Source: an uncultured Gemmatimonadales bacterium (GTDB lineage Bacteria; Gemmatimonadota; Gemmatimonadetes; Gemmatimonadales; GWC2-71-9). Taken from it: a stretch of DNA of 64,000 nucleotides. Under the pieces are notes generated by a model that saw nothing but the letters and a program-made list of their open reading frames with translations, made no database searches and was not told the DNA's origin. Both the position numbers and the translations under genes were made by a program. The stretch is taken from assembly GCA_963844035.1 (NCBI GenBank), contig CAWJMT010000035.1, forward strand, positions 9,537 to 73,536, read 5' to 3'. Of this stretch, positions 1,536-51,883 are shown one piece after another (position 1 is the first letter of the stretch; every line of letters begins with the position of its first letter).

Positions 1536-2090
1536 ATGAGGCTTGTACTCGTGTCCGTCGTGCTCTTCGGGGCGCTCTCTTGCTCGGATTCGTCCGGACC
1601 AGACATCCAGGGAAGCCTGTCGTTCACGTACACCGGCGCGGGAGGAGGAACGTTCAGCGCGTCGGGAGACGCGCCTTCCTTGACTGCGCCCCCGCCTGGA
1701 ACGAGTTGGGCGGTGGGGTATGTGCAGGCAAGCGAGACTCACGTCGCCGGTTCCACGCCGCGGTCAGGTGTTCTTGTAGACCTCGCGATTCTCCGGCTCG
1801 AGCGCACGACCCCAGGCTCCGCAAGCGTCGACCTTGCGTGCGACCTCGACGGCAGCGCCAGCTGCACCGGAATGGAACTCCTTCTGAACTTCAACGGCAA
1901 CGGCGACACGGGCGACTTCTTCTGCGGCTTGACGAGCGGAACGATCGTTCTCACGGAGGTAACCAGCAGCCGGGCCAAGGGCACGTTTTCGGGAAACGGC
2001 AATTGCATCGCCGGCACCGGAGGAACTTCCTCGGTGTTTTCGGTGAGCAATGGGGCGTTCGACGTCGCGTTGGTTGCGCCGCCCGGCTAG
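1536..2090 (+). CDS. Lipoprotein, hypothetical
   Basis: ORF 1536..2090. N-terminus MRLVLVSVVLFGALSC has a lipobox Cys. The mature part is Gly/Ser/Thr-rich. Confidence 0.65.
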   Translation: MRLVLVSVVLFGALSCSDSSGPDIQGSLSFTYTGAGGGTFSASGDAPSLTAPPPGTSWAVGYVQASETHVAGSTPRSGVLVDLAILRLERTTPGSASVDLACDLDGSASCTGMELLLNFNGNGDTGDFFCGLTSGTIVLTEVTSSRAKGTFSGNGNCIAGTGGTSSVFSVSNGAFDVALVAPPG

Positions 2091-2105
2091 ATCAAGACCG
2101 TGGCG

Positions 2106-2126
2106 GCCTAACCGGCGCTTGGAACG
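2106..2126 (+). repeat. Truncated attC left arm (short-family type)
   Basis: GCCTAACCGGCGCTTGGAAC resembles GCCTAACACGCGCTTGAAGC of the 736-838 site. It lies 16 nt after the lipoprotein stop. No right arm follows; the reverse-strand module begins at 2133. Confidence 0.45.
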
Positions 2127-2132
2127 GGCGGG

Positions 2133-2888
2133 CTAATGAGGTGGCGCGCGCCTCACCAGCGACTCAAGGGTCTCGAGCGCGGCGCCGGCCGCGGACAGGC
2201 GCTCCACTTCCGACGTGAGTTCCCGGCAACGTGCCTCGGCGCGCGCGCGACCAGATTGCGCCTCCTGCAGGCGCGTGTCCAGATCGGCCAGCTCTGCCTC
2301 CGCTTCTTGCAGCAGCGCCGCCCGGTCTTCGAGCCCGCGCAGTCCGGCGATCTCTTCGAGCACCTGGTCGCGTTCGGCGGCGAGCGCTTCTGCCTCGGCC
2401 ACCGCCTCATCGGCGATCCGCCGCCGCTCCTCGGCCTGGGCCTCGAACGAGCCCCTAGCCCGGCGTTCCTTCTTCAGCTCGGCCTCGCCCCGGGCGAGCG
2501 CGGCGCGGGCCTCGTCCAGCTCCCCGGCCAGCCGGGACCGTTCCTCGATCGCGGACTCGAGCTTGGCGCGCAACAAGTCGATCAACTCCCGCACGGCCGC
2601 CGCGGTCTGCTGAGGCTCGGCCTCGCCGGCGGACCCGCGCGCGGTCGCCGCCAGTCGCTCCCGCAGCGACGCGGTCCGCTCCCGACCGCTCTTCCCGCGC
2701 GCGACGCGCGGGCTCGGTTGCGGAGTTGCCGGCGGAGGCGTGACGTCGGGCGTCGGCGCGAGGACGACCGACTCGATACTGGTGGGCGGCGTCCCGTTTT
2801 CGGAGCCGGCCGTGAGCTCGGTGAGCACGCGGGAGATCGGCCGCGGCTTACGGGCTGGAACGTTGGCGTCGAAACCGCGTGTCGTCAC
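2133..2888 (-). CDS. Pro/Ala-rich N-terminus + C-terminal coiled-coil protein (PomX-like architecture)
   Basis: This is the frame of ORF 2133..3029. A GTG at 2888 overlaps the ParA stop as GTGA, indicating translational coupling. The N-terminus is ..PPTSIESVVLAPTPDVTPPPATPQPSP. The C-terminal ~150 aa are heptad-like and Glu/Ala/Arg/Leu-rich. Confidence 0.7.
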   Translation of the reverse strand: MTTRGFDANVPARKPRPISRVLTELTAGSENGTPPTSIESVVLAPTPDVTPPPATPQPSPRVARGKSGRERTASLRERLAATARGSAGEAEPQQTAAAVRELIDLLRAKLESAIEERSRLAGELDEARAALARGEAELKKERRARGSFEAQAEERRRIADEAVAEAEALAAERDQVLEEIAGLRGLEDRAALLQEAEAELADLDTRLQEAQSGRARAEARCRELTSEVERLSAAGAALETLESLVRRAPPH

Positions 2889-3850
2889 GCGCTCTTCTCC
2901 ATCGCGCGCTCGAGGCGCGCGCTGATCATCAGGCCGATGAGAGCGTCGATGTCCTTGGCGCCCTTGCACGATGGCGCGAAGGCATTGACGGGCAGGCCCT
3001 CGCTGGATGCCTGCGCGAACTGCGTGCATTGCCGCACGACCGCGTCCGACAGGAACTCGCGATAGTGCGTTTCCAGCGCCGCTTTTGCCTCGCGCGCGAT
3101 CCTGGTCGTGGGGTTGTATTGATTGATGACGATCAGGATCCGCTGCAGCCGGTGGTTCAGATCGTCCTCGAGTTGGCCCAGGGTCTCGAACAGCAATTTG
3201 AGACCGTGAAACGACAGGAAATCCGGGAGCACCGGGACGAGCAAGTCATCGGAGGCCATCAACGCATTGAGGTTCAGGAGCCCGAAGGAGGGCGGGGCAT
3301 CCATGACGATGAAATCGTAGCGATCAGACACTCGGGCGAGGGCCCGCTGGAGCTTGTACTCCCGCCCGGCCATCGGCATGAGACTGATGTCAATCGTCGT
3401 CATCCGCAGGTTGGCCGGGAGCACATCGAACTCCGCCAGCACTGTTCCCACGATCACGTCTTCGATCGGGACCCCGCCGACCATCACGTCGAAGACCGTG
3501 CGCTCGAAATTCTCGCCGGCGAGGCCCAGATGCCGGGTCGCGTGCCCCTGCGAATCGAGGTCGATCAAGAGCACCCGGTGGCCCATTTCTGCGAGCCGGT
3601 AGGCGTAGGCCACGGAAAGGCTGGTCTTGCCGGTGCCACCCTTGAAGTTCAGGAAGAGCTGGCGGCGCAGCGGCTCCCGGCCAGGGTAGCAACCCAACAC
3701 TCTGCGGTACGCCGACAGGTGTCGCGGCTGGTAGGAGTCGGGTCCGCCGCCCAGCCGTTTCAGCTCGGCCAGTTTGTCGGCGTCGGTGAGCAGCGTGTCG
3801 GTGAGCCCCAGGAGCTTGGCAAAGTGCCTGCGCTGGTAGTGGATCTCCAC
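2885..3850 (-). CDS. ParA/MinD-family P-loop ATPase with a ~65-aa N-terminal extension (PomZ-like position)
   Basis: Deviant Walker A FKGGTGKTS, then LLIDLDSQGHAT and a Walker B-like FIVMDAPPS. The GTG start overlaps the upstream gene's stop by 1 nt. Confidence 0.9.
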   Translation of the reverse strand: MEIHYQRRHFAKLLGLTDTLLTDADKLAELKRLGGGPDSYQPRHLSAYRRVLGCYPGREPLRRQLFLNFKGGTGKTSLSVAYAYRLAEMGHRVLLIDLDSQGHATRHLGLAGENFERTVFDVMVGGVPIEDVIVGTVLAEFDVLPANLRMTTIDISLMPMAGREYKLQRALARVSDRYDFIVMDAPPSFGLLNLNALMASDDLLVPVLPDFLSFHGLKLLFETLGQLEDDLNHRLQRILIVINQYNPTTRIAREAKAALETHYREFLSDAVVRQCTQFAQASSEGLPVNAFAPSCKGAKDIDALIGLMISARLERAMEKSA

Positions 3851-4977
3851 TAGGACGCTCGCTGCACGATGCCGGTCTCCGAGCGCCCGGGGTCTTGGGC
3901 GCGAAGGATCTGAAGGACGATGCGCCGCACCTGGGGGTCGGGATCACCGGTGAGCGGCTCGAGGAGCGGGCGCAGGGCCACCCCTCGCGCCGCGGCCGCG
4001 GCGAGCACCGCGCGGCGGCGAACGTGGGGGTTGGCGTCGGCGATCCCCCACCGGATGTGGGGCTCGAGCCGCACCGGGTCCCGTTGCAGCAGCCGGCCGA
4101 GCGCGTGGTACGCCGCGGCGCGCACGATCGGATCTTCTGCGGTGGCCCAAGGGCGAACGGCGTAGAACGCGTCGTCCCCGCCACGGCGGCCGAGACGGAG
4201 GAGCAGATCCACCTGGTCCTGTGGGCGCTCCGCCGCCGCCAGTGCCGCGACCAACCCGTCCGCAGGGGGACGCTCCGGCGTCACCGCGGCGGCAGCCGGC
4301 TCAGTGAGCTCCAGCATCTGTGGTGGGGTCGTCGCCTGGTCGAGCTGCTCGCGCAGGGCGGCCTCGCGGCGCTCTCCCAAGGCGTTGTCCCGTTCGAGGT
4401 CGAGGAGGGCGCGGCGCAGACTGCCGATGAACTCGGCAAGATCTACGGCTTCGGTGTCGCCGTGGCGCACGGAGCGTTGCCACTCGACCACCCGCGTGAG
4501 CAGGGTCTCGCGGGATGCCACCAGCTCGTCCACGCGCGCTCGCAGCTGCGAGGTCGTCTGTTCGCTGCCCGCGATACGCTCCCGGGCGGCAGCCGCTTCC
4601 CGCCGCAGGCGCACCAGCTCCTGCGCGTCGTCGCGCGCCTCTGACTCGAAGACATGTCCCTGCAGGTTGGCGCGCAGCGCCTCGGAGTGTTCCAGTCGCC
4701 GGTGTAGGGCGGCGACCTCCTCACGGGCCTGGGCGACCTCGCCCTGGAGCCGGCTGAGACGCTGAGTTTCGCCGACCTCACGCGCGGCGGCCTCGGCGAG
4801 GCGAACGCGGGCCAAGTCCGCCTCGGCGCGCGCCTCGTCGAGCGCGCCGCGCAATTGCTCCAGCCGGCACTCGAGCAGTACGGTCCGGTCCGAGCCGGCG
4901 GGCGGAGCCGAGCCCGCCGAGAGGCTGCCTCGACGCGGAGCCGTTACGCCTTCTCGCAGGGCAAGACCATGTATCAT
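3850..4977 (-). CDS. N-terminal coiled-coil + C-terminal HEAT-repeat protein (PomY-like architecture)
   Basis: ORF 3850..4977. Residues ~35-215 are coiled-coil-like. The C-terminus has repeated DP.VR..A units (DPIVRAAAYHALGRL, ANPHVRRRAVLAAA, DPDPQVRRIVLQIL) typical of HEAT/PBS-lyase repeats. Confidence 0.8.
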   Translation of the reverse strand: MIHGLALREGVTAPRRGSLSAGSAPPAGSDRTVLLECRLEQLRGALDEARAEADLARVRLAEAAAREVGETQRLSRLQGEVAQAREEVAALHRRLEHSEALRANLQGHVFESEARDDAQELVRLRREAAAARERIAGSEQTTSQLRARVDELVASRETLLTRVVEWQRSVRHGDTEAVDLAEFIGSLRRALLDLERDNALGERREAALREQLDQATTPPQMLELTEPAAAAVTPERPPADGLVAALAAAERPQDQVDLLLRLGRRGGDDAFYAVRPWATAEDPIVRAAAYHALGRLLQRDPVRLEPHIRWGIADANPHVRRRAVLAAAAARGVALRPLLEPLTGDPDPQVRRIVLQILRAQDPGRSETGIVQRAS

Positions 4978-5162
4978 CAGTATAGCAAAACGCGTCAGTC
5001 CGCGAAACCCATGAGGTCAAGTCAAGTCCCCTGAACCGGGCCCACCGGCCAGGTTTGGATTACTTGGTGCGGTGATCGCGCCAGCCGTCATATTCGGGGT
5101 GGCGACCCTTTGGCCCGTGGTTCTCGGCGGGCACGCTCGTTGACTCCTCCGGCGGTGGGGGA

Positions 5163-5304
5163 GCCTAACAAGCGCGTGAAGCTGTCGGCGCGGTCGCTTC
5201 GAGGTAGAATTGCAGTTGTGCGCCAGCGTATCATCTGTGAGCGGCTTGATCACCGGGGCGCCCGGCTGGACGGGGCGCCGCAGCTTACGCGCATTCCGTT
5301 AGGC
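5163..5304 (+). repeat. attC-like site, 141-bp family, complete
   Basis: GCCTAACAAGCGCGTGAAGCTG...CAGCTTACGCGCATTCCGTTAGGC. The R''/R' cores are exact complements. The left arm GCGCGT-G-AAGCTG carries one unpaired G relative to the right arm. Confidence 0.85.
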
Positions 5305-5472
5305 AGCACACTCCAATCCTTGATGTTTACTTGACGGTGTCATGCAATGCTTCCGGGCACCTCGTTCGGAGCATTGCCCATGACTGCGAAGCGCGCTGTT
5401 CTCCCGCTTGGTTTAACTCGGCGGGCGGGTTGTCCGCGGCTCATGCGCGATCCGTTAGGCAGCGGCCATACC

Positions 5473-5835
5473 ATGCGATCTCTAACCTTACTCGTGGCCA
5501 GTCTCGCCCTGCTTGCCCCGGTCTCTGCGTGCGGCGCCGGCTGGCAGCGACTACCGGCCGTCACACCCGGGGCTTTCGAGCCCCGTCAGCAGGTGCAGAT
5601 TTGGCATGCCGGGACCGTCTCCCGCTGGCATGCTGTGGTGATCGGCCCCGACTCAATTTCCGGAATTCCTTACTATAAGGTGGTGGACTGCGATAGCTGC
5701 CGCACTCGCGTACCTCGCAGCGTCGTGGACTCCATTCGCGTCGGGGATCCCGTCGCAGGGTTCTGGAAATCTGTCGGACTCACTCTTGGGCTCATGTTCG
5801 CCTTCTGTTACGCGACGTGCCCCAGGGGGGATTGA
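5473..5835 (+). CDS. Cassette ORF: small lipoprotein, hypothetical
   Basis: In-frame ATG at 5473 within ORF 5347..5835. N-terminus MRSLTLLVASLALLAPVSAC has a lipobox. The stop is 8 nt before the next attC. Confidence 0.6.
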   Translation: MRSLTLLVASLALLAPVSACGAGWQRLPAVTPGAFEPRQQVQIWHAGTVSRWHAVVIGPDSISGIPYYKVVDCDSCRTRVPRSVVDSIRVGDPVAGFWKSVGLTLGLMFAFCYATCPRGD

Positions 5836-5842
5836 GGGCGCT

Positions 5843-5983
5843 GCCTAACAAGCGCGTGAAGCTAGCGGCGCGGCCTCTTCGAGGTAGAATTGCGTTTGTG
5901 CGCCAGTCTTTGTCTGTGTGGGACTTGATCACTCGGGCGCCCGGCGGGGCGCGGCGCCGCAGCTTACGCGCATTCCGCTAGAC
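5843..5983 (+). repeat. attC-like site, 141-bp family, with a mutated R' core
   Basis: Full-length copy, but the right core reads GCTAGAC (5977-5983) instead of GTTAGGC, so the G/TT crossover triplet is altered. Confidence 0.8.
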
Positions 5984-6003
5984 GGCGGCAAAGGGCGAGA
6001 CCT

Positions 6004-6745: not shown

Positions 6746-6750
6746 CCGCC

Positions 6751-6891
6751 GTCTAACAAGCGCGTGAAGCTGGCGGCGCGTGCTCTTCGAGGTAGAATTG
6801 CGTTTGTGCCCCCGTCTCCATCTGTGGAGCGGTTGATCATCGGGGCGCCCGGCGGGGCGGGGCGCCGCAGCTTACGCGCAATCCGTTAGGT
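6751..6891 (+). repeat. attC-like site, 141-bp family, complete
   Basis: GTCTAACAAGCGCGTGAAGCTGGCGGCGCG...GCGCCGCAGCTTACGCGCAATCCGTTAGGT. Both cores fit RYYYAAC / GTTRRRY. Confidence 0.85.
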
Positions 6892-6911
6892 GCCTTTCCG
6901 AGGGTAACCCA

Positions 6912-7703
6912 TTGCAGGTAGCAAAGAAGCTCGTCCTCGTCACTGGCGCCTCATCTGGCATTGGAGCAGCCGTAGCTCACGGCATGGCCCGCCGTGGAGC
7001 GCGGCTCATTCTCGTGGCACGGGACCCTGCACGACTGTCGGCGGTTGCCAGAGAGCTCGCGTCCCTTCCGACCGAGGCCCACGTTTACGCTGCCGACCTC
7101 GCCGACCCGAAGGCTGTTGAAGCATTGGCCCACGACGTGAGCGCCCGGCACGGGACCCCCGATGTGTTGGTGAACAACGCGGGCGCTGGCCGCTGGCTCA
7201 CGATCGAGGAAACATCTGCAGAGGAGCTCGAGCAGATGATGGCGGTGCCGTACTTTGCAGCATTCAACCTCACGCGTGCCTTCCTGCCGGGCATGCGGCG
7301 CCGGGGAACTGGCCACATCGTCAACGTCACCTCTGTGGCCAGTCGACTCGTGTGGCCAGGGGCTGCCGCGTATACGGCCGCGCGTCGTGCCGTCGTGGCG
7401 TTCTCTGAATCACTGCGCACTGAACTTGCGGGGACTGCCTTGAGGGTCACCGTCACCACCTTTGGCACCGTGTCAACACCCTACTGGGCCCACAATCCTG
7501 GAAGCGAGGACCGCCTCCCCCTCGCCGATCGATCAATACCACGGCTGACGGCCGAGGCGGCCGCAGAGGCTCTTTGCCGCGGCGTGGAGCGCGAGAGAGC
7601 CGAAGTCATCTTGCCTCGGCGCTTTCGGCTGCTGTTCCTTCTCAATGCCGTGGCTCCTAAGAGCACGGCCCAGATACTTCGGCGGGGGTGGAAAGGCGCC
7701 TAA
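6912..7703 (+). CDS. Cassette ORF: short-chain dehydrogenase/reductase (SDR)
   Basis: TTG start 21 nt after the attC. Cofactor motif VTGASSGIGAAVA, NNAG, and YTAAR.A resembling the catalytic YxxxK region. The stop TAA lies inside the next GCCTAAC core. Confidence 0.9.
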   Translation: MQVAKKLVLVTGASSGIGAAVAHGMARRGARLILVARDPARLSAVARELASLPTEAHVYAADLADPKAVEALAHDVSARHGTPDVLVNNAGAGRWLTIEETSAEELEQMMAVPYFAAFNLTRAFLPGMRRRGTGHIVNVTSVASRLVWPGAAAYTAARRAVVAFSESLRTELAGTALRVTVTTFGTVSTPYWAHNPGSEDRLPLADRSIPRLTAEAAAEALCRGVERERAEVILPRRFRLLFLLNAVAPKSTAQILRRGWKGA

Positions 7704-7718
7704 CAAGCGCGTGAAGCC
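7698..7718 (+). repeat. Truncated attC (left arm only)
   Basis: GCCTAACAAGCGCGTGAAGC matches the family consensus, after which similarity is lost. No R' core follows before the next ORF. Confidence 0.6.
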
Positions 7719-9336: not shown

Positions 9337-9348
9337 AGAGGCGCGCGC

Positions 9349-9450
9349 GCGTATCAAGCGCGTGAAGCTGCCGGCGCGGTCTCCGCGGGGTGGAATTGCG
9401 TTCTGTGCGTCCGTACTGCATCTGGTGGAGCGGTTGTGGTGAAATCGGGA
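9349..9450 (+). repeat. Truncated, degenerate attC (left ~two-thirds)
   Basis: GCGTATCAAGCGCGTGAAGCTGCCGGCGCGG..GGAATTGCGTTCTGTGCG..GAGCGGTTG follows the family consensus with a degenerate R'' (GCGTATC). The right arm and R' are absent. Confidence 0.6.
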
Positions 9451-9543
9451 GACAGCGCTGGTCTTGAGGGGGCAGTGGCGCCGAGCCGTCCCGGTTCGAG
9501 TTCGGGCCAGGGCATGTCTCGGAAGGTTATCCCCAGGTGGCGC

Positions 9544-9810: not shown

Positions 9811-9999
9811 CGATGACCATCGGACGCGCACGGCGGAGGCAGATGTCCCGTCGCACACCTCGAAGGCTGCCCCGTTTTCACACGCCGCTCGTGAATCGGA
9901 GCGTGCGAAAGACCTCGACGGTGCCTCGGCATCGCGAGGTCGACGAGTTTCTGGCCCGCAAGATCTGTCGCGATCTTGAAGTTCCTGAAGCGCTCCGAC

Positions 10000-10126
10000 G
10001 CCTAACAAGCGCGTGAAGCTGGCGGCGCGGCCCTCACGAGGTAGAATTGCGTTTGTGCGCCCGTCTGCATCTGTGGATCGGTTGATCATCGGCGTGCCCG
10101 GCGGGGCGGGGCGCCGCAGCTTACGC
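10000..10126 (+). repeat. attC-like site, 141-bp family, lacking the R' end
   Basis: Matches the consensus from GCCTAACAAGCGCGTGAAGCTG through ..GCGCCGCAGCTTACGC. The expected GCATTCCGTTAGGC is then replaced by unrelated sequence. Confidence 0.75.
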
Positions 10127-10143
10127 CGCCTCTCGCGCGCCGC

Positions 10144-10683
10144 GTGAGAGCGTTCGTCGCCGCGCTCTGCGCGCTCCCCTGGCTTGCAGCGCAGGCCGAC
10201 GAGCTCTCCATCTTCAAGACCTGGCTCGATCGCGAGCATCCCGGCTACCACTCCGACGAAGGGCCCGCGCCGTTCCGCAACAAGACCGTCGAGGCCGCGT
10301 ATCCTGGGGTGCACTTCTACTACGTGCTCACCTACCCGCGGGGGATCCCGCCACCGTACCGCAACATGCTGACGCTCGTCGCCCAAGTGGACGAGCACGG
10401 CGCCGTGCTGCCGGTTCGCGCAATGGAGACGTTTCGGCGCGGCCTTCGCCCGGTGAAGACTAAGGAAGACGCGCCCAAGGTGGCCGCCGCCGTCCTCATC
10501 CTCGCATTCAGCGATCCGGGACAGCGGCGCTGGCCGTTCGTGCCCGAGAAATTCGTCGTGAAGCGGAAGAGCGGCGGCTGGGTTTGCACCTATTCCACCG
10601 GCTTTGGGTACGAGTCGGTCGTCACCTTCGACAAACATGGGACGCTCGTGTCCTTTAGCGCGAACGCCCCGCCTGTGGGCTAG
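10144..10683 (+). CDS. Secreted hypothetical protein
   Basis: GTG start. Signal peptide MRAFVAALCALPWLAAQA/DE. No motif recognised. Confidence 0.6.
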   Translation: MRAFVAALCALPWLAAQADELSIFKTWLDREHPGYHSDEGPAPFRNKTVEAAYPGVHFYYVLTYPRGIPPPYRNMLTLVAQVDEHGAVLPVRAMETFRRGLRPVKTKEDAPKVAAAVLILAFSDPGQRRWPFVPEKFVVKRKSGGWVCTYSTGFGYESVVTFDKHGTLVSFSANAPPVG

Positions 10684-12757: not shown

Positions 12758-12777
12758 CAACCCATCACGGAGCAATC

Positions 12778-13581
12778 ATGCGCTGGATCCCCGGTAGCCG
12801 AAGCGAAAACCTCGAGGACCGCCGCGGCCAACGATTCGGCGGTTTCGGCCGACTTGGTCTGGGAGGCGCGGTCATCGTCGTGGTTCTCAGCCTCGTGTTT
12901 GGGCGTGACTTCACCGGAATCTTGACTGACGGCGGGGAAGTCGGCTCCCAGTCCGCTCCGGACGGGTCCGCGGCACCAGTCCAGTCCACGCCCCAGGAAG
13001 AACGGCTCGTCGACTTCGTCTCGTTCGTGCTGGACAGCGCGCAGGCCACCTGGGCCCGGATCCTGCCGCAGCAAGGCGCCCGCTATCGCCCCGCGAAACT
13101 CGTGCTGTTCCGCGATGCGGTGCAGTCCGCCTGCGGGTTCGGCCAGGCCGCCAGTGGGCCGTTCTACTGTCCTGGCGACGAAAAGGTGTACATCGACCTC
13201 GGCTTCTTCGAGGAGCTCAAAACCCGCTTCGGCGCCCCTGGCGATTTTGCCCAGGCCTACGTTCTCGCCCATGAGCTCGGCCACCACGTCCAGAACCTGC
13301 GCGGCACCATGGGCGCGGCGCGCGACAACCAACAGTCCGTCCAGATCGAGCTGCAGGCCGACTGCCTTGCGGGCGTCTGGGGCTACCACGCGTCCCGGCA
13401 GAACCTGCTCGAGCCCGGTGACGTGGAAGAGGGCATGGGTGCCGCAGCGGCGGTCGGCGATGATCGAGTGACCGGCGGCCGCGTGAGCCCCGAGAACTTC
13501 ACCCACGGCTCGTCCGCCCAACGCATCGCCGCGTTCCGGCGCGGGCTCACGTCCGGCCGCGTAGCTGACTGCGGCCCCTAG
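12778..13581 (+). CDS. YpfJ-like neutral zinc metallopeptidase, copy 1
   Basis: ATG at 12778 within ORF 12595..13581. MRWIPGSRSENLEDRRG, one TM segment, and an HELGHH zinc motif (AYVLAHELGHHVQN). Confidence 0.9.
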   Translation: MRWIPGSRSENLEDRRGQRFGGFGRLGLGGAVIVVVLSLVFGRDFTGILTDGGEVGSQSAPDGSAAPVQSTPQEERLVDFVSFVLDSAQATWARILPQQGARYRPAKLVLFRDAVQSACGFGQAASGPFYCPGDEKVYIDLGFFEELKTRFGAPGDFAQAYVLAHELGHHVQNLRGTMGAARDNQQSVQIELQADCLAGVWGYHASRQNLLEPGDVEEGMGAAAAVGDDRVTGGRVSPENFTHGSSAQRIAAFRRGLTSGRVADCGP

Positions 13582-17673: not shown

Positions 17674-17682
17674 TAGCCCGCG

Positions 17683-17762
17683 GCCTGACGAGCGCGTGAA
17701 CCTAGCGGCGCGCTCGTGGCGCGGTAGAATTGCGGGTGTGCGATCGCTTACATCCGTGAGAT
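17683..17762 (+). repeat. Internally deleted, degenerate attC (~80 bp)
   Basis: GCCTGACGAGCGCGTGAACCTAGCGGCGCG..GGTAGAATTGCGGGTGTGCGA is joined to CGCTTACATCCGTGAGAT. Both cores are mutated (GCCTGAC, GTGAGAT). Confidence 0.6.
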
Positions 17763-17770
17763 TTCGGAGC

Positions 17771-17959
17771 GTGAGGTCCGCCTCCTGGCTTGTCCCCATC
17801 GTGCTGGGGCTCAGCGGCTCCGCGTGCGGTGAGATCAATGGGTTCTGCCTCACAGCGGGCGCACCCACTGGTGTGACCCTGGTGGCGAGGTTCACACCGA
17901 CGCCCGACGGGAACCGCCTCACCTGCAGCTTGGCCCTCCCGGACTCCGTGCGGCCCTAG
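17771..17959 (+). CDS. Possible 62-aa lipoprotein
   Basis: GTG at 17771, 9 nt after the degenerate attC, in the frame of ORF 17336..17959: (M)RSASWLVPIVLGLSGSACGEINGFCL... It is short with no homology evidence. Confidence 0.35.
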   Translation: MRSASWLVPIVLGLSGSACGEINGFCLTAGAPTGVTLVARFTPTPDGNRLTCSLALPDSVRP

Positions 17960-19719: not shown

Positions 19720-19863
19720 ACAACTCCGATGAGACACCTTTCCCAAAAGGAGCGCGCGGGCATGTGATCCTGAGCGCAGATCCTTCGCTGCGCGCGCGTT
19801 CCGCGCGCTCCGCTCAGGATGACCGCCGCTTCTATGAAAAGAGAAGAGACATAGAGAGGAGAT

Positions 19864-19897
19864 GAAGCTGGCGGCGCGGTTGCCGCGAAGTAGAATT
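19864..19897 (+). repeat. Internal attC fragment
   Basis: GAAGCTGGCGGCGCGGTTGCCGCGAAGTAGAATT matches the family segment GAAGCTGGCGGCGCGG..CGAGGTAGAATT. No cores are present. It sits immediately upstream of ATG 19905. Confidence 0.55.
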
Positions 19898-19904
19898 AGA
19901 CCTC

Positions 19905-21137
19905 ATGAAACCGATCCTGCCGTTCATGCTGCTTGTCACCCTCGCCGCCGTACCGGTCCCGGTCCCGCCTCCGCCCCCGCCGAGCGGCGATGTCGTGGGC
20001 GATTGGATCGATCGAGCGGTGGCCGTGGGATATCGCGCCGGCGTTCCCCCCACCTTGAACGGACGCTGCGTTGCGCTCGTGGCGCTGGCCATGTTCGACG
20101 TCCTCAACGCGATCGAGCCGCGCTACACCCCCTATCGCCAGCAGCCGCGGGCCACACCCGGAGCGGCCGGCGACGCGGCGGCTGCTGCGGCCGCGCATTC
20201 CATCCTGGTGCGCGCCTATCCGGCACACACGGCGGCGCTCGACTCGGCGTTCCAGTCCGCCATCGCCGCCGTTCCCGAAGGACCGCGCGCGAACGCCGTG
20301 CGCCTGGGCGAAGACGTCGCGACCCGGTTGTGGAATGAGCGAGCCGGCGACGGCGCGGAATCGCCCAACGTGTGGCGCCCGACCACCACGGCGGGCACGT
20401 ACGTGCCCACGGTTTTGCCGATCGGCTCCGCGTGGGGCGCGGTGAAACCATTCGCGCTGCGAGCGGGGAACCAATTCCGTCCCGGCCCGCCCCCCGCCTT
20501 GACGAGCCAGGAGTGGGCGGCTGACTACGACGAAGTGAAGCGCCTGGGCGCCAAGAACGGCTCCACCCGGACGCCCGAGCAGACCGAGATCGCGCGCTTC
20601 TGGGAGTACGTCGGACCCGGCACCTACCTGCCGGTCGCACGCCAGGTCGTGGAGGCGAAGCAGCTGGCCCCAGTGGAGCGGGCCCGGGTCTACGCCCTGG
20701 TCTGCATCGCCGCCGCGGACGCGCTGATCGCCGTGTTCGACGCCAAGTACACCTACAACTTCTGGCGACCGCTGACCGCGATCAGGAACGGCGACGTGGA
20801 CGGCAACGAGGCGACCGGGCGCGATCCCGCCTGGGAGCCCCTCATTCCCACGCCACTCCATCCCGAATACCCGTGCGCGCACTGCATCTCACAGACGGCC
20901 GTGGCGACGGTCCTGGAGAAACTCTTCGGCGACACCGTGCCCGAGTTCGCGTTGACCAGCCCAACGGCCCCGGGCGTCACGCGCCGGTACCGGCGGCTGT
21001 CGGACTACGCGACCGAAGTGCTCAACGCCCGGATCTACGACGGTGTGCACTATCGCACTTCCGGCAACGTCGGCGCGGCGATGGGCCGGCAGATCGGCGC
21101 GTACGTGGTTGCCAACGTGCTCACCCCCGTCCGGTGA
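19905..21137 (+). CDS. PAP2-superfamily / vanadium-haloperoxidase-like protein, secreted
   Basis: Signal MKPILPFMLLVTLAAVP. KYTYNFWRPLTAIR and TPLHPEYPCAHC..ARIYDGVHYR match the acid-phosphatase/haloperoxidase motif set. Confidence 0.8.
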   Translation: MKPILPFMLLVTLAAVPVPVPPPPPPSGDVVGDWIDRAVAVGYRAGVPPTLNGRCVALVALAMFDVLNAIEPRYTPYRQQPRATPGAAGDAAAAAAAHSILVRAYPAHTAALDSAFQSAIAAVPEGPRANAVRLGEDVATRLWNERAGDGAESPNVWRPTTTAGTYVPTVLPIGSAWGAVKPFALRAGNQFRPGPPPALTSQEWAADYDEVKRLGAKNGSTRTPEQTEIARFWEYVGPGTYLPVARQVVEAKQLAPVERARVYALVCIAAADALIAVFDAKYTYNFWRPLTAIRNGDVDGNEATGRDPAWEPLIPTPLHPEYPCAHCISQTAVATVLEKLFGDTVPEFALTSPTAPGVTRRYRRLSDYATEVLNARIYDGVHYRTSGNVGAAMGRQIGAYVVANVLTPVR

Positions 21138-24906: not shown

Positions 24907-25019
24907 GATCGGCTCCTTGATCGGTTTGGGCGCGCCTGATTGCGCGCTCTACCAGCACGACGAACGAAGGGCAGGGAAATCGACTGGCGGAGCGGTACTC
25001 GTGCGATAACATTGCAGTT

Positions 25020-25490
25020 GTGCCTCCGCATTCGCGCCCTCCGGAGCCGTACGTGCTTCCCCAGCCGGTGGTGGTGGACGGCCTGGCGGTGCGCACCAGC
25101 AACCCCGACGAAGCCCAGCCTGACCGCGCCAGGATCCCGGTATTGTGGGAGCGCTTCTACAATGAGGGCCACTCCGCCGCGGTGGAAGGTGCGGTATACG
25201 GCGTGTACTCCGAGTATGCGACCGATGCGTCGGGGCCTTACACACTGGTCGTCGGTGGTGCGAGCGACGCCGGGTCTCCGGTGCCACCCCTCACACGTGT
25301 GACGATCCCCGCCGGGCGGTATCTGGCCTTCACGAGCGCGGGCGAAGTCCCGGCGGCTGTGGTCGCCGGCTGGCAGGCCGTGTGGGAGTATTTCTCGCGT
25401 CCTGGGGCGCCGCGGCGGGCGTTCACAACGGACTTTGAGCTCTACGACCCGGCCACCCTGTATGAGGTGCGTATCTGCATCGCAGTGTAG
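25020..25490 (+). CDS. GyrI-like small-molecule-binding domain protein
   Basis: ..IPVLWERFY..GVYSEY..PYTLVVG..IPAGRYLAFT..W..FELYD is the pattern of the AraC-effector-binding/GyrI-like fold. Confidence 0.6.
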   Translation: MPPHSRPPEPYVLPQPVVVDGLAVRTSNPDEAQPDRARIPVLWERFYNEGHSAAVEGAVYGVYSEYATDASGPYTLVVGGASDAGSPVPPLTRVTIPAGRYLAFTSAGEVPAAVVAGWQAVWEYFSRPGAPRRAFTTDFELYDPATLYEVRICIAV

Positions 25491-36118: not shown

Positions 36119-36407
36119 TCGCCTGCCCAACATCGTGCGCCCTAGACCCCGATGCGAGCGAGACGAAGTTCGTGCTCTTCAAGCGCTCGTATCAGGGCAT
36201 GCTTCAGACTCCGGTAGCCGGGCTATCTCTTCCGAGACCCCTAGCTTTGCGCCCCACCGTTGCCGGTGGTTTGCCCTGATCAGAGTTCTTCCGGGGTGGG
36301 GTAAAGCAAAATCGGTGCCCGGGATAGAAGGGTGTTTTTCCGCACGGAAACTCTGTCCCAGTCGTCACCGTATCGTGCTAAATGCCCGAAACAATGCATA
36401 ATGCGAC

Positions 36408-50937: not shown

Positions 50938-50954
50938 CATCCAAGGACACGCTC

Positions 50955-51019
50955 CGCGAACAAGCGCGTGAGCTGGCGGCGCGGCCGCCACGAGGTAGAA
51001 TTGCGTTTGTGCGCCCGTC
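50955..51019 (+). repeat. attC left half (141-bp family), outside the main array
   Basis: ..GCGAACAAGCGCGTGA-GCTGGCGGCGCGGCCGCCACGAGGTAGAATTGCGTTTGTGCGCCCGTC matches the family left half. The core is degenerate and the right half is absent. Confidence 0.65.
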
Positions 51020-51070
51020 GGCGCTACTCCGGTTACACTTGTTGCTCGAGACGTTTATCACGGAGCACAC

Positions 51071-51883
51071 ATGCGCTGGATTCCCGGTAGCCGAAGCGAA
51101 AACCTTGAGGACCGCCGCGGCCAACGCTTCGGCGGTTTTGGCCGACTTGGCCTGGGGGGCGCGGTCATCGTCGTGGTTCTCAGCCTCGTGTTTGGGCGTG
51201 ACTTCACCGGAATCTTGACTGATGGTGGGGACGTCGGCTCCCAGTCCGCTCCGGACGGGTCCGCGCCACCAGTCCAGTCCACGCCCCAGGAAGAACGCCT
51301 CGTCGACTTCGTCTCGTTCGTGCTGGACAGCGCGCAGGCCACCTGGGCCCGGATCCTGCCTCAGGAAGGCGTCGGCTATCGCCCCGCGAAGCTGGTGCTG
51401 TTCCGCGATGCGGTGCAATCCGCCTGTGGGTTCGGCCAGGCAGCCAGTGGGCCGTTCTACTGCCCTGGCGACGAAAAGGTGTACATCGACCTCGGCTTCT
51501 TCGAGGAGCTCAAGACCCGCTTCGGTGCGCCTGGCGATTTTGCACAGGCCTACGTTCTCGCCCATGAGCTCGGCCACCACGTCCAGAACCTGCGCGGCAC
51601 CATGGGCGCGGTGCGCGACAACCAACAGTCGGTCCAGATCGAGCTACAGGCTGACTGCCTTGCGGGCGTCTGGGGCTACCACGCGTCACGGCAGAACCTG
51701 CTCGAGCCCGGTGACGTGGACGAGGGCCTGGGTGCCGCAGCGGCGGTCGGCGATGATCGAGTGCAGGGCATGTCGACGGGCCGCGTGAGCCCCGAGAACT
51801 TCACCCACGGGTCGTCCGCCCAACGCATCGCCGCGTTCCGGCGCGGGCTCACGTCCGGCCGCGTGGCTGACTGCGGCCCCTAG
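51071..51883 (+). CDS. YpfJ-like neutral zinc metallopeptidase, copy 2
   Basis: Collinear with 12778..13581. By manual alignment there are about 35 substitutions plus one 9-nt indel. The same HELGHH motif is present. Confidence 0.9.
   Translation: MRWIPGSRSENLEDRRGQRFGGFGRLGLGGAVIVVVLSLVFGRDFTGILTDGGDVGSQSAPDGSAPPVQSTPQEERLVDFVSFVLDSAQATWARILPQEGVGYRPAKLVLFRDAVQSACGFGQAASGPFYCPGDEKVYIDLGFFEELKTRFGAPGDFAQAYVLAHELGHHVQNLRGTMGAVRDNQQSVQIELQADCLAGVWGYHASRQNLLEPGDVDEGLGAAAAVGDDRVQGMSTGRVSPENFTHGSSAQRIAAFRRGLTSGRVADCGP

Follow-up and report, generated by a model that had tools for sequence, protein, structure and literature searches.

The window analysed here, a stretch of 64,000 nucleotides from an uncultured Gemmatimonadales bacterium (GenBank assembly GCA_963844035.1, contig CAWJMT010000035.1, positions 9,537 to 73,536 of the forward strand), carries on its minus strand a trio of genes that is probably the Gemmatimonadota orthologue of the pomY-pomZ-pomX operon of Myxococcus xanthus (MXAN_0634, MXAN_0635 and MXAN_0636). 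We read the locus as a streamlined, vertically inherited part of the chromosome with a likely role in positioning the division site. In order of transcription the genes (pomY-like, pomZ-like and pomX-like in what follows) encode the same three protein types as the M. xanthus operon: a coiled-coil protein with HEAT repeats, a ParA/MinD-family ATPase, and a protein whose proline-rich N-terminal part leads into a coiled coil. The assignment to PomXYZ is strongly supported by the sequences of all three proteins and by the order of their genes.

For comparison, the PomX peptide (PMC7993993) was back-translated and a genome collection was scanned with it; this recovered pom loci from many myxobacteria, that of M. 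xanthus among them. The locus of M. xanthus AM003 (L020; related loci are referred to by such numbers) has, on a single strand, pomY (863/989-3037), pomZ (3078-4037, 319 amino acids) and pomX (4043-5257, 404 amino acids). The pomZ-like protein (321 amino acids) is 56% identical to M. xanthus PomZ over 301 residues (E=3e-122, 342 bits), with part of the N-terminal extension included in the alignment, and 53-60% identical to the PomZ proteins of the other recovered myxobacterial loci. Its Pfam AAA_31 match (5e-48) starts at residue 66, and the position of the deviant Walker A motif at residues 70-77 leaves an N-terminal extension of about 65 residues, a feature of PomZ as well. The residues altered in published PomZ mutants, K61, G62, K66 and D90, are conserved as K70, G71, K75 and D99.

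This similarity stands apart from that to the ParA superfamily at large. When the pomZ-like protein is queried against 1.84 billion representatives, few full-length proteins exceed about 250 bits, while generic ParAs score about 145-160 bits at 30-39% identity. Among solved structures ParA and Soj are the best matches (121-126 bits), with MinD at about 50 bits. The NCBIfam models return a partial ParA_partition match below its cutoff (99.6 bits against 180), and plasmid RepA as well. Two further identities were tried and rejected: MinD, for which the minD_bact model gives 31 bits against a cut-off of 212.9 and the partners are coiled-coil and HEAT proteins, and MipZ, for which the Pfam match is weak and partial (1.5e-9). 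In a neighbour-joining tree the Gemmatimonadota and myxobacterial clades form separate branches of one PomZ-like group, neither nested in the other, so that a recent transfer from myxobacteria is unlikely. Models, search, structures and tree thus agree in grouping this ParA with PomZ and not with chromosomal or plasmid ParA, MinD or MipZ, the placement that a preliminary description of this DNA had named as a test of its own PomXYZ proposal.

The link between the pomX-like protein and PomX is seen best at the N-terminus. PomX activates PomZ through a positively charged peptide of about 22 residues with two essential residues, K13 and R15, whose replacement abolishes the activation (PMC7993993). 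The pomX-like protein begins with a peptide that aligns with it without gaps (GFDANVPARKPR in the pomX-like protein, AFEQNVSRAKPR in PomX); the pattern F-[DE]-x-N-V-x3-K-P-R-x5-L-T is common to both, and K14 and R16 are the counterparts of K13 and R15. As in PomX, where this part is rich in alanine and proline, a disordered proline-rich linker follows (18.6% proline in residues 1-70) and then a coiled coil (Filament 3.7e-7, under the Pfam cut-off). The linker is much shorter than in PomX and the whole protein has 251 residues against 404. The motif is present in 107 of the 113 Gemmatimonadota pomX-like homologues; at least five of the six misses have this peptide with a conservative change or with an extended N-terminus, and the sixth carries the peptide and was missed by the search pattern only. 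When 449,420 windows from the six-frame open reading frames (ORFs) of the myxobacterial loci are scored with a profile of the Gemmatimonadota peptide, the PomX N-terminus comes out on top, at 30.8 against 29.8 for the best unrelated window. For one position specified in advance (residue 2 of the gene after pomZ), the chance of such a rank is a few in a million. The coiled-coil halves of the two families align in hhalign with E=7.6e-5 over 172 columns, and an intermediate sequence, the X protein of locus L083, matches the pomX-like protein with E=9e-13 (42% over 150 residues) and M. xanthus PomX with E=5e-9 (BLASTP, composition correction on).

The pomY-like protein corresponds to the first part of PomY. 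Pfam places HEAT_2 (1.7e-8) and HEAT (1.2e-6) in residues 240-359, and the AlphaFold2 (AF2) model, with a mean predicted local distance difference test score (pLDDT) of 78, consists of a disordered N-terminus, a long helix (28-109), two further long helices reaching residue 215, a disordered linker and eight short helices (239-361) that make four HEAT repeats. The coiled-coil helix of PomY comprises residues 5-106 (PMC13170346). BLASTP against M. xanthus PomY gives weak collinear matches in the coiled coil and the HEAT region (E 9e-4 and 2e-4), and other myxobacterial PomYs are matched with E values down to 8e-8. Alignment of family against family with hhalign reaches a probability of 98.3% (E=2e-14) over 310 collinear columns; it runs from the first PomY coiled-coil residues through a common 'DLA.FI..LR' motif (VDLAEFIGSLRR here, LDLASFISQLRS in PomY) and over the HEAT repeats. 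Controls across the families (X against Y, and Y against X) give 3% and 0.6%.

The order pomY-pomZ-pomX on one strand is common to M. xanthus, the window and loci L001-L008, L083, L087 and L089. Each of the three proteins has hundreds of close homologues, almost uniform in length, in public metagenomes and metagenome-assembled genomes (MAGs); where named, these belong to Gemmatimonadales or Longimicrobiales. Homologues of the pomZ-like protein are 68-94% identical, and nearly all have 321 residues. The pomY-like homologues are 77-100% identical among the best 120 matches, and the pomX-like homologues 48-100%. Large contigs carry the trio between unrelated flanks: L001 (388 kb, Gemmatimonadales), L004/L005 (Longimicrobiales), L006 (962 kb), L007 (484 kb), L003 and L087. 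Nucleotide homology to the closest relatives (84-91% identity) covers exactly positions 5016-2133, that is, the trio and 39 nt upstream of it; otherwise only attC repeats are shared. In the closest relative (L003:6407-7613) the pomY-like gene is split into two overlapping frames; the coverage of that contig is low (4x), and the split is therefore probably a sequencing frameshift and not a pseudogene.

Sequences from beyond these relatives connect the Gemmatimonadota and Myxococcus forms. We surveyed 80 metagenome loci whose ParA is 55-92% identical. An ORF starting with the motif lies directly after ParA in 74 of them, and the six exceptions have less than 120 nt of sequence downstream of ParA; a PomY-like match precedes ParA in 69. 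Starting from the Gemmatimonadota type, the peptides change by degrees, by way of MKRAFDANVSR.RPR and MKRGFEENVPKVRPRVRLG, into the Myxococcus type. The best representative from outside Gemmatimonadota, P0361 (on a 425-kb contig of 70% GC), is 61% identical to the window ParA and 59-60% identical to PomZ, and is flanked by a 480-residue coiled-coil and HEAT protein, which matches both Y families (1e-10 and 7e-6), and by a 444-residue protein starting MKSAFNKNVSKRKPRTRLG, the intermediate X protein whose matches to the pomX-like protein and to PomX are given above. The trio of another representative, P0363, is of the same make-up, and the X protein in it starts MRKAFSANVSTARPKTRLG.

Uncultured lineages show further arrangements. 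Full Y-Z-X trios are found in L089 (3277-7190) and L083 (4571-8342); the winged-helix domain of PomY is kept in L089 and is missing from L083, as in Gemmatimonadota. A Candidatus Riflebacteria MAG of 44% GC (L085:5074-7086) has a two-gene form: the gene upstream of a PomZ-like ParA (43-45% identity) encodes a 289-residue coiled-coil protein with a PomX-like N-terminus (MNNRFDRTLPKKIPK), and no HEAT protein is adjacent.

The three ORFs are real genes and not chance ORFs: hundreds of homologues are conserved, and the GC content of the trio at third codon positions (GC3) is 0.83-0.86. Window housekeeping genes have values of 0.82-0.89, compared with 0.69-0.76 for the cassette ORFs beside the trio. 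The TAG stop of the pomY-like gene and the GTG start of the pomZ-like gene have one base (G) in common, and the pomZ-like and pomX-like genes overlap in a GTGA; the M. xanthus genes are instead spaced by 40 and 5 nt. The pomY-like start codon is uncertain: where the window has its ATG (4977), the aligned genes of relatives start with GTG. Immediately upstream lies the conserved non-coding block at which DNA homology to related genomes stops, probably a promoter or leader. Together with its equivalents in L003, L006 and L007 it shows about 45 conserved nt with a TATA(C/G)T box almost abutting the start codon, and it could be the promoter of a leaderless or short-leader transcript, or a regulatory site. 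A consensus sigma-70 scan of positions 1900-5500 found no promoter. A search with the PADLOC defence library brought up nothing beyond trivial coiled-coil and P-loop matches.

Features of the trio and of its attC borders in the window
Feature	Position	Strand	Basis or remark
pomY-like gene, 375 amino acids	3850..4977	-	ORF, Pfam, AF2 model, hhalign against PomY family
Coiled-coil helix of the pomY-like protein, residues 28-109	4651..4896	-	AF2, hhalign
HEAT-repeat region of the pomY-like protein, residues 239-361, 8 helices (4 repeats)	3895..4263	-	Pfam, BLASTP, hhalign, AF2
pomZ-like gene, 321 amino acids, ParA/MinD ATPase	2885..3850	-	PomZ identity, AAA_31
Deviant Walker A KGGTGKTS, residues 70-77 of the pomZ-like protein	3620..3643	-	Sequence and alignment
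pomX-like gene, 251 amino acids, GTG start within the GTGA overlap	2133..2888	-	ORF, hhalign, intermediate L083X
N-terminal peptide (M)TTRGFDANVPARKPRPISRVLTEL of the pomX-like protein, homologous to the PomX ATPase-activating peptide (NPEP) MKKAFEQNVSRAKPRLRLGALT	2817..2888	-	PMC7993993, motif survey
Conserved non-coding block directly upstream of the pomY-like gene, GGGTTTCGCG.ACT.A.GC.TTT..CTATA; probable promoter or leader	4978..5016	-	Homology to relatives
Remnant R''-L'' arm, last attC of the plus-strand array, GCCTAACCGGCGCTTGGA	2106..2123	+	10 nt from the pomX-like stop codon; rest of the site missing
Complete attC, 144 nt upstream of the conserved trio block	5160..5308	+	Covariance model 159.9 bits, fold

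The preliminary description had read three overlapping minus-strand genes with overlaps of 1 nt and GTGA, and coordinates and junctions bear this out. Pfam, AF2 and composition likewise confirm its account of a coiled-coil and HEAT protein, an extended ParA with KGGTGKTS and a proline-rich protein with a coiled coil. Its proposed resemblance to PomXYZ proves stronger than it had supposed, as all three proteins are homologous and the Y-Z-X order is identical, so that the case does not stop at architecture. The profile searches that it had called for on the two flanking proteins matched the PomY and PomX families at the values given above. Its statement that PomXYZ is restricted to myxobacteria follows the literature and is incorrect in view of the Gemmatimonadota trio: the Pom papers report conservation in myxobacteria (Cystobacterineae), and only myxobacterial genomes were searched there.

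How such a trio would work can be proposed by orthology. The PomX-like protein would self-assemble through its coiled coil into a single scaffold, on which the PomY-like protein would bind and concentrate through its coiled coil and HEAT region. ATP-bound dimers of the PomZ-like protein would coat the nucleoid and tether the cluster to it. The N-terminal peptide of the PomX-like protein would trigger ATP hydrolysis, and the cluster would thereby move by biased random motion to mid-nucleoid, where it would recruit FtsZ and mark the division site. In the Gemmatimonadota form the PomX-like protein would be the sole activator. When M. xanthus PomY is deprived of its disordered C-terminal region, what is left is a coiled-coil and HEAT protein resembling the one in the window, and it still assembles on PomX into spherical clusters, which colocalise with division constrictions (PMC10307791). 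On this evidence, retention of the coiled coil and HEAT repeats suggests that the parts linked to condensate formation and FtsZ recruitment are kept and the second activator is lost.

Several observations weigh against this assignment. Compared directly by BLASTP, the pomX-like protein and M. xanthus PomX show no significant match, and a hidden Markov model of the peptide (31 columns) gives only matches of E>1 among the myxobacterial ORFs. Homology of the X proteins therefore rests on a position-specific motif, a modest profile match and transitive links. In the ATPase, PomZ K268, a residue for non-specific DNA binding, aligns with Q277, and DNA binding by the Gemmatimonadota protein may lie with other basic residues. 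A term search of PMC7993993 found no mention of K268. The differences are largest in the PomY-like protein, which has 375 residues against 682 in PomY, four HEAT repeats against six to seven, and an isoelectric point of 6.3 against 9.7. It ends 14 residues past the last HEAT helix and has neither the C-terminal disordered region nor the winged-helix domain. PomY residues 496-682 carry a second ATPase-activating activity that is important for positioning in Myxococcus (PMC13170346), and this is the part that is lost: a match to it was searched for in the Y proteins of the window, L087 and L083 and none was found, whereas L089 keeps the C-terminal domain. Finally, the mechanism is carried over from the system as studied in another phylum (PMC13170346, PMC7993993, PMC10307791), and function in Gemmatimonadota is inferred from homology. 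Some Gemmatimonadota divide asymmetrically (PMC11271474), and the positional read-out may therefore differ.

Some of these points feed the best of the alternatives, in which the machine is derived from PomXYZ and does another job: it would place an off-centre division site, position another large assembly on the nucleoid, or organise the chromosome. The missing C-terminal module and different charge of the PomY-like protein are compatible with a changed role, symmetric and asymmetric division both occur in Gemmatimonadota (PMC11271474), and ParA/MinD systems have been re-used for many cargos (PMC13170346). Against another job stand the 56% identity of the ATPase and the fact that no partner has been lost and the gene order has stayed the same between phyla, which argue for conserved function. 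The coiled-coil and HEAT portion that is retained is the one reported as sufficient for clusters that colocalise with constrictions (PMC10307791), and Gemmatimonadota genomes have no other known division-site system (PMC11271474). We consider another job unlikely, and division-site positioning by a PomXYZ orthologue remains our preferred explanation.

The setting of the trio in the window provides the grounds for a second alternative: an accessory ParA module that is mobile, has its own promoter and forms an integron cassette in reverse orientation. The window contains genuine attC repeats with R''/R' boxes GCCTAAC...GTTAGGC; when folded, their bottom strands show an R-stem and an L-stem separated by an unpaired spacer, and single bulged bases. 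Five attC sites of the window, the one at 5160-5308 among them, served to build a covariance model, which finds plus-strand sites at 1-122, 733-842, 5160-5308, 5840-5987, 6748-6895 and 9997-10144, plus weaker ones. The arm at 2106-2123 fits the R''-L'' pattern exactly, where 0.01 chance matches are expected. The neighbouring cassette ORFs all lie on the plus strand, opposite to the trio. Pattern, covariance model and ORF strands thus uphold the preliminary description where it saw the trio between a truncated attC arm and a complete attC, in an orientation opposite to the cassettes. The flanks of the trio also differ in every related genome, and L007 has a mobile island inserted where its pomX-like gene ends.

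The conclusion that the preliminary description drew from this setting, a mobile or accessory module borne by a cassette, is not borne out. A cassette would have an attC at both bounds, variable presence and cassette-like composition. Here the right bound is complete and the left is an 18-nt remnant, a truncated arm that is not a recombination-competent attC; the trio is present in all related loci examined; and its GC3 is core-like. The divergence of its ParA tracks taxonomy, with identities from 93% down to 68%. Among relatives with a ParA at least 81% identical and enough sequence, attC sites occur in eight of 12 (L003, L006, L007, L086, L094, L098, L099 and L105), in every case on the downstream side of the pomX-like gene and on the opposite strand; the first site in L006 is 62 nt past the stop codon. 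Six relatives have 5 kb or more of sequence upstream of the pomY-like gene, and no attC was found there. The more distant L001, L004/L005 and L087 keep gene order and protein lengths, and within 10 kb of the trio in these and other loci no attC was detected with a model that may be lineage-specific. Related trios, whose surroundings the preliminary description had proposed to survey, are therefore not always flanked by attC. Synteny across the lineage, in Gemmatimonadales and Longimicrobiales and with or without attC, answers to a refuting condition that the preliminary description had set and makes a cassette very improbable, and the locus is best described, as far as comparison of genomes goes, as vertically inherited on the chromosome beside an integron array.

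The attC borders can be accounted for in these terms. As the attC sites of relatives are all downstream, the normal arrangement in this sub-lineage is a cassette array whose far end adjoins the pomX-like gene at its 3' end, and the arm at 2106-2123 is what decay has left of the last attC in that array. The complete attC at 5160-5308 is part of the integron and not of the Pom module, and an attC upstream of the pomY-like gene is peculiar to this genome. Three events could have left the trio with attC on either side: a second array may have been seeded ahead of the pomY-like gene, the region may have been rearranged, or the metagenome assembly may have been mis-joined at the attC repeats.

An orphan R' arm lies at 5419-5463, about 110 nt past the complete attC; a left arm to match it is missing, and the interval contains no ORF. 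It may stem from a cassette that is empty or broken, and together with the arm at 2106-2123 it may record the rearrangement that placed attC on both sides of the trio. Left halves of attC with no recognisable R' arm (9346-9507, 17680-17813, 19863-19907, 24984-25023, 50952-51054 and 7698-7715, some with the core GGTAGAATTGCGTTTGTGCGCC) are spread over 50 kb among genes of core-like codon usage, and may be decayed attC sites or a related repeat of another role.

The island in L007 (12635-19362) occupies 6.2 kb between the pomX-like gene and the attC array. Its genes encode a Uma2-family endonuclease, a patatin, a SMODS cyclase, an E1/E2-like protein and a JAB protein, which make up a cyclic-oligonucleotide-based antiphage signalling system (CBASS). 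It is bracketed by a second copy, 91% identical, of the final 239 nt of the pomX-like gene, which suggests an element that integrates into the 3' end of this gene. The end of the gene would therefore be an insertion point for other mobile DNA as well, and such insertion helps to explain the variable flank.

The weakest alternative is a DNA partition system, in which the ParA would work with a non-canonical centromere-binding adaptor to segregate a chromosome or plasmid; the sub-cutoff NCBIfam matches and a JGI annotation as 'chromosome partitioning protein' speak for it, and it is made hardly credible by the lack of any ParB, helix-turn-helix or ribbon-helix-helix DNA-binding domain in either partner (Pfam, NCBIfam), by the parAB present elsewhere in cultured Gemmatimonadota (PMC11271474), by the large chromosomal contigs (322-962 kb) on which the locus lies, and by a similarity to PomZ far above that to any partition ParA.

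Comparison with other positioning systems brings out what the trio shares with them. MinCDE also combines a ParA/MinD-family ATPase with an activator that acts through a short basic N-terminal peptide, and the PomX peptide has been modelled to bind at the place where MinE binds (PMC13170346). In contrast, no MinC or MinE homologues are found at the trio, and by homology it would be a positive regulator based on the nucleoid, where Min is an inhibitor based on the membrane. ParABS of the Soj/Spo0J type has an ATPase of the same superfamily with a deviant Walker A, and its members are the closest solved structures; it differs in that the trio has no ParB or parS, in the score (about 120 bits against 342 bits for PomZ) and in having one centromere-binding protein where the trio has two coiled-coil partners. 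McdAB and MipZ likewise employ ParA-type ATPases, for which the nucleoid is the matrix on which an assembly is positioned or FtsZ regulated, although McdB has no sequence relationship with the partner proteins of the trio, and MipZ works with ParB and has no X-like or Y-like partners. With the cassettes of sedentary chromosomal integrons and of clusters of attC sites lacking integron integrases (CALIN) the trio shares its place between attC sites of a genuine array; unlike them, it appears as a conserved core locus with core-like codon usage, no intact 5' attC, and relatives without flanking attC.

Two features of the window lie apart from the trio. A zinc-metallopeptidase-like gene with a HELGHH motif is present in two copies (12775-13581 and 51071-51883) 38.3 kb apart, which share two stretches (300 nt and 107 nt) of 96-98% identity; the second copy directly follows the attC half-site at 50952-51054. 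On the minus strand at 36209-36284, between an oxidoreductase gene and a region for histidyl-tRNA synthetase (HisRS), Rfam identifies a variant of the c-di-GMP-I-GGC riboswitch (62.7 bits, gathering 59).

Gemmatimonadota are among the most abundant soil phyla, and how they choose the division site is explicitly an open question (PMC11271474). A 2024 study found that their genomes encode none of Min, MipZ, PomZ, MapZ and SsgAB and suggested orphan ParA-like proteins as candidates; its table for eight cultured members lists no minCDE, two to four copies of parA, and parB (PMC11271474). Judged by its sequence and its neighbours, the orphan ParA of Gemmatimonadota is a PomZ orthologue accompanied by PomX-like and PomY-like partners. 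We found no earlier report of such an orthologue with both partners in the literature covered, which is incomplete. Since the phylum was reported to be without Min, MipZ and PomZ, the trio is a concrete and testable candidate for the placement of its division site, and the locus makes the question directly accessible to experiment in cultured organisms.

On balance we lean towards PomXYZ being an old division-site system of several phyla, of which Min-less Gemmatimonadota use a form with a single activator, and of which related trios and a two-gene variant occur in other uncultured lineages. If the assignment is right, the division-site system reported missing from a major soil phylum in 2024 would be identified, and natural 'minimal' variants of PomXYZ would be at hand. 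PomXYZ would then be recast, from a myxobacterial speciality with a two-activator design, described in the literature as unique, to a widespread family with a natural one-activator form. Such a variant would help to separate the parts of PomY that serve condensate formation and FtsZ recruitment from those that serve control of the ATPase.

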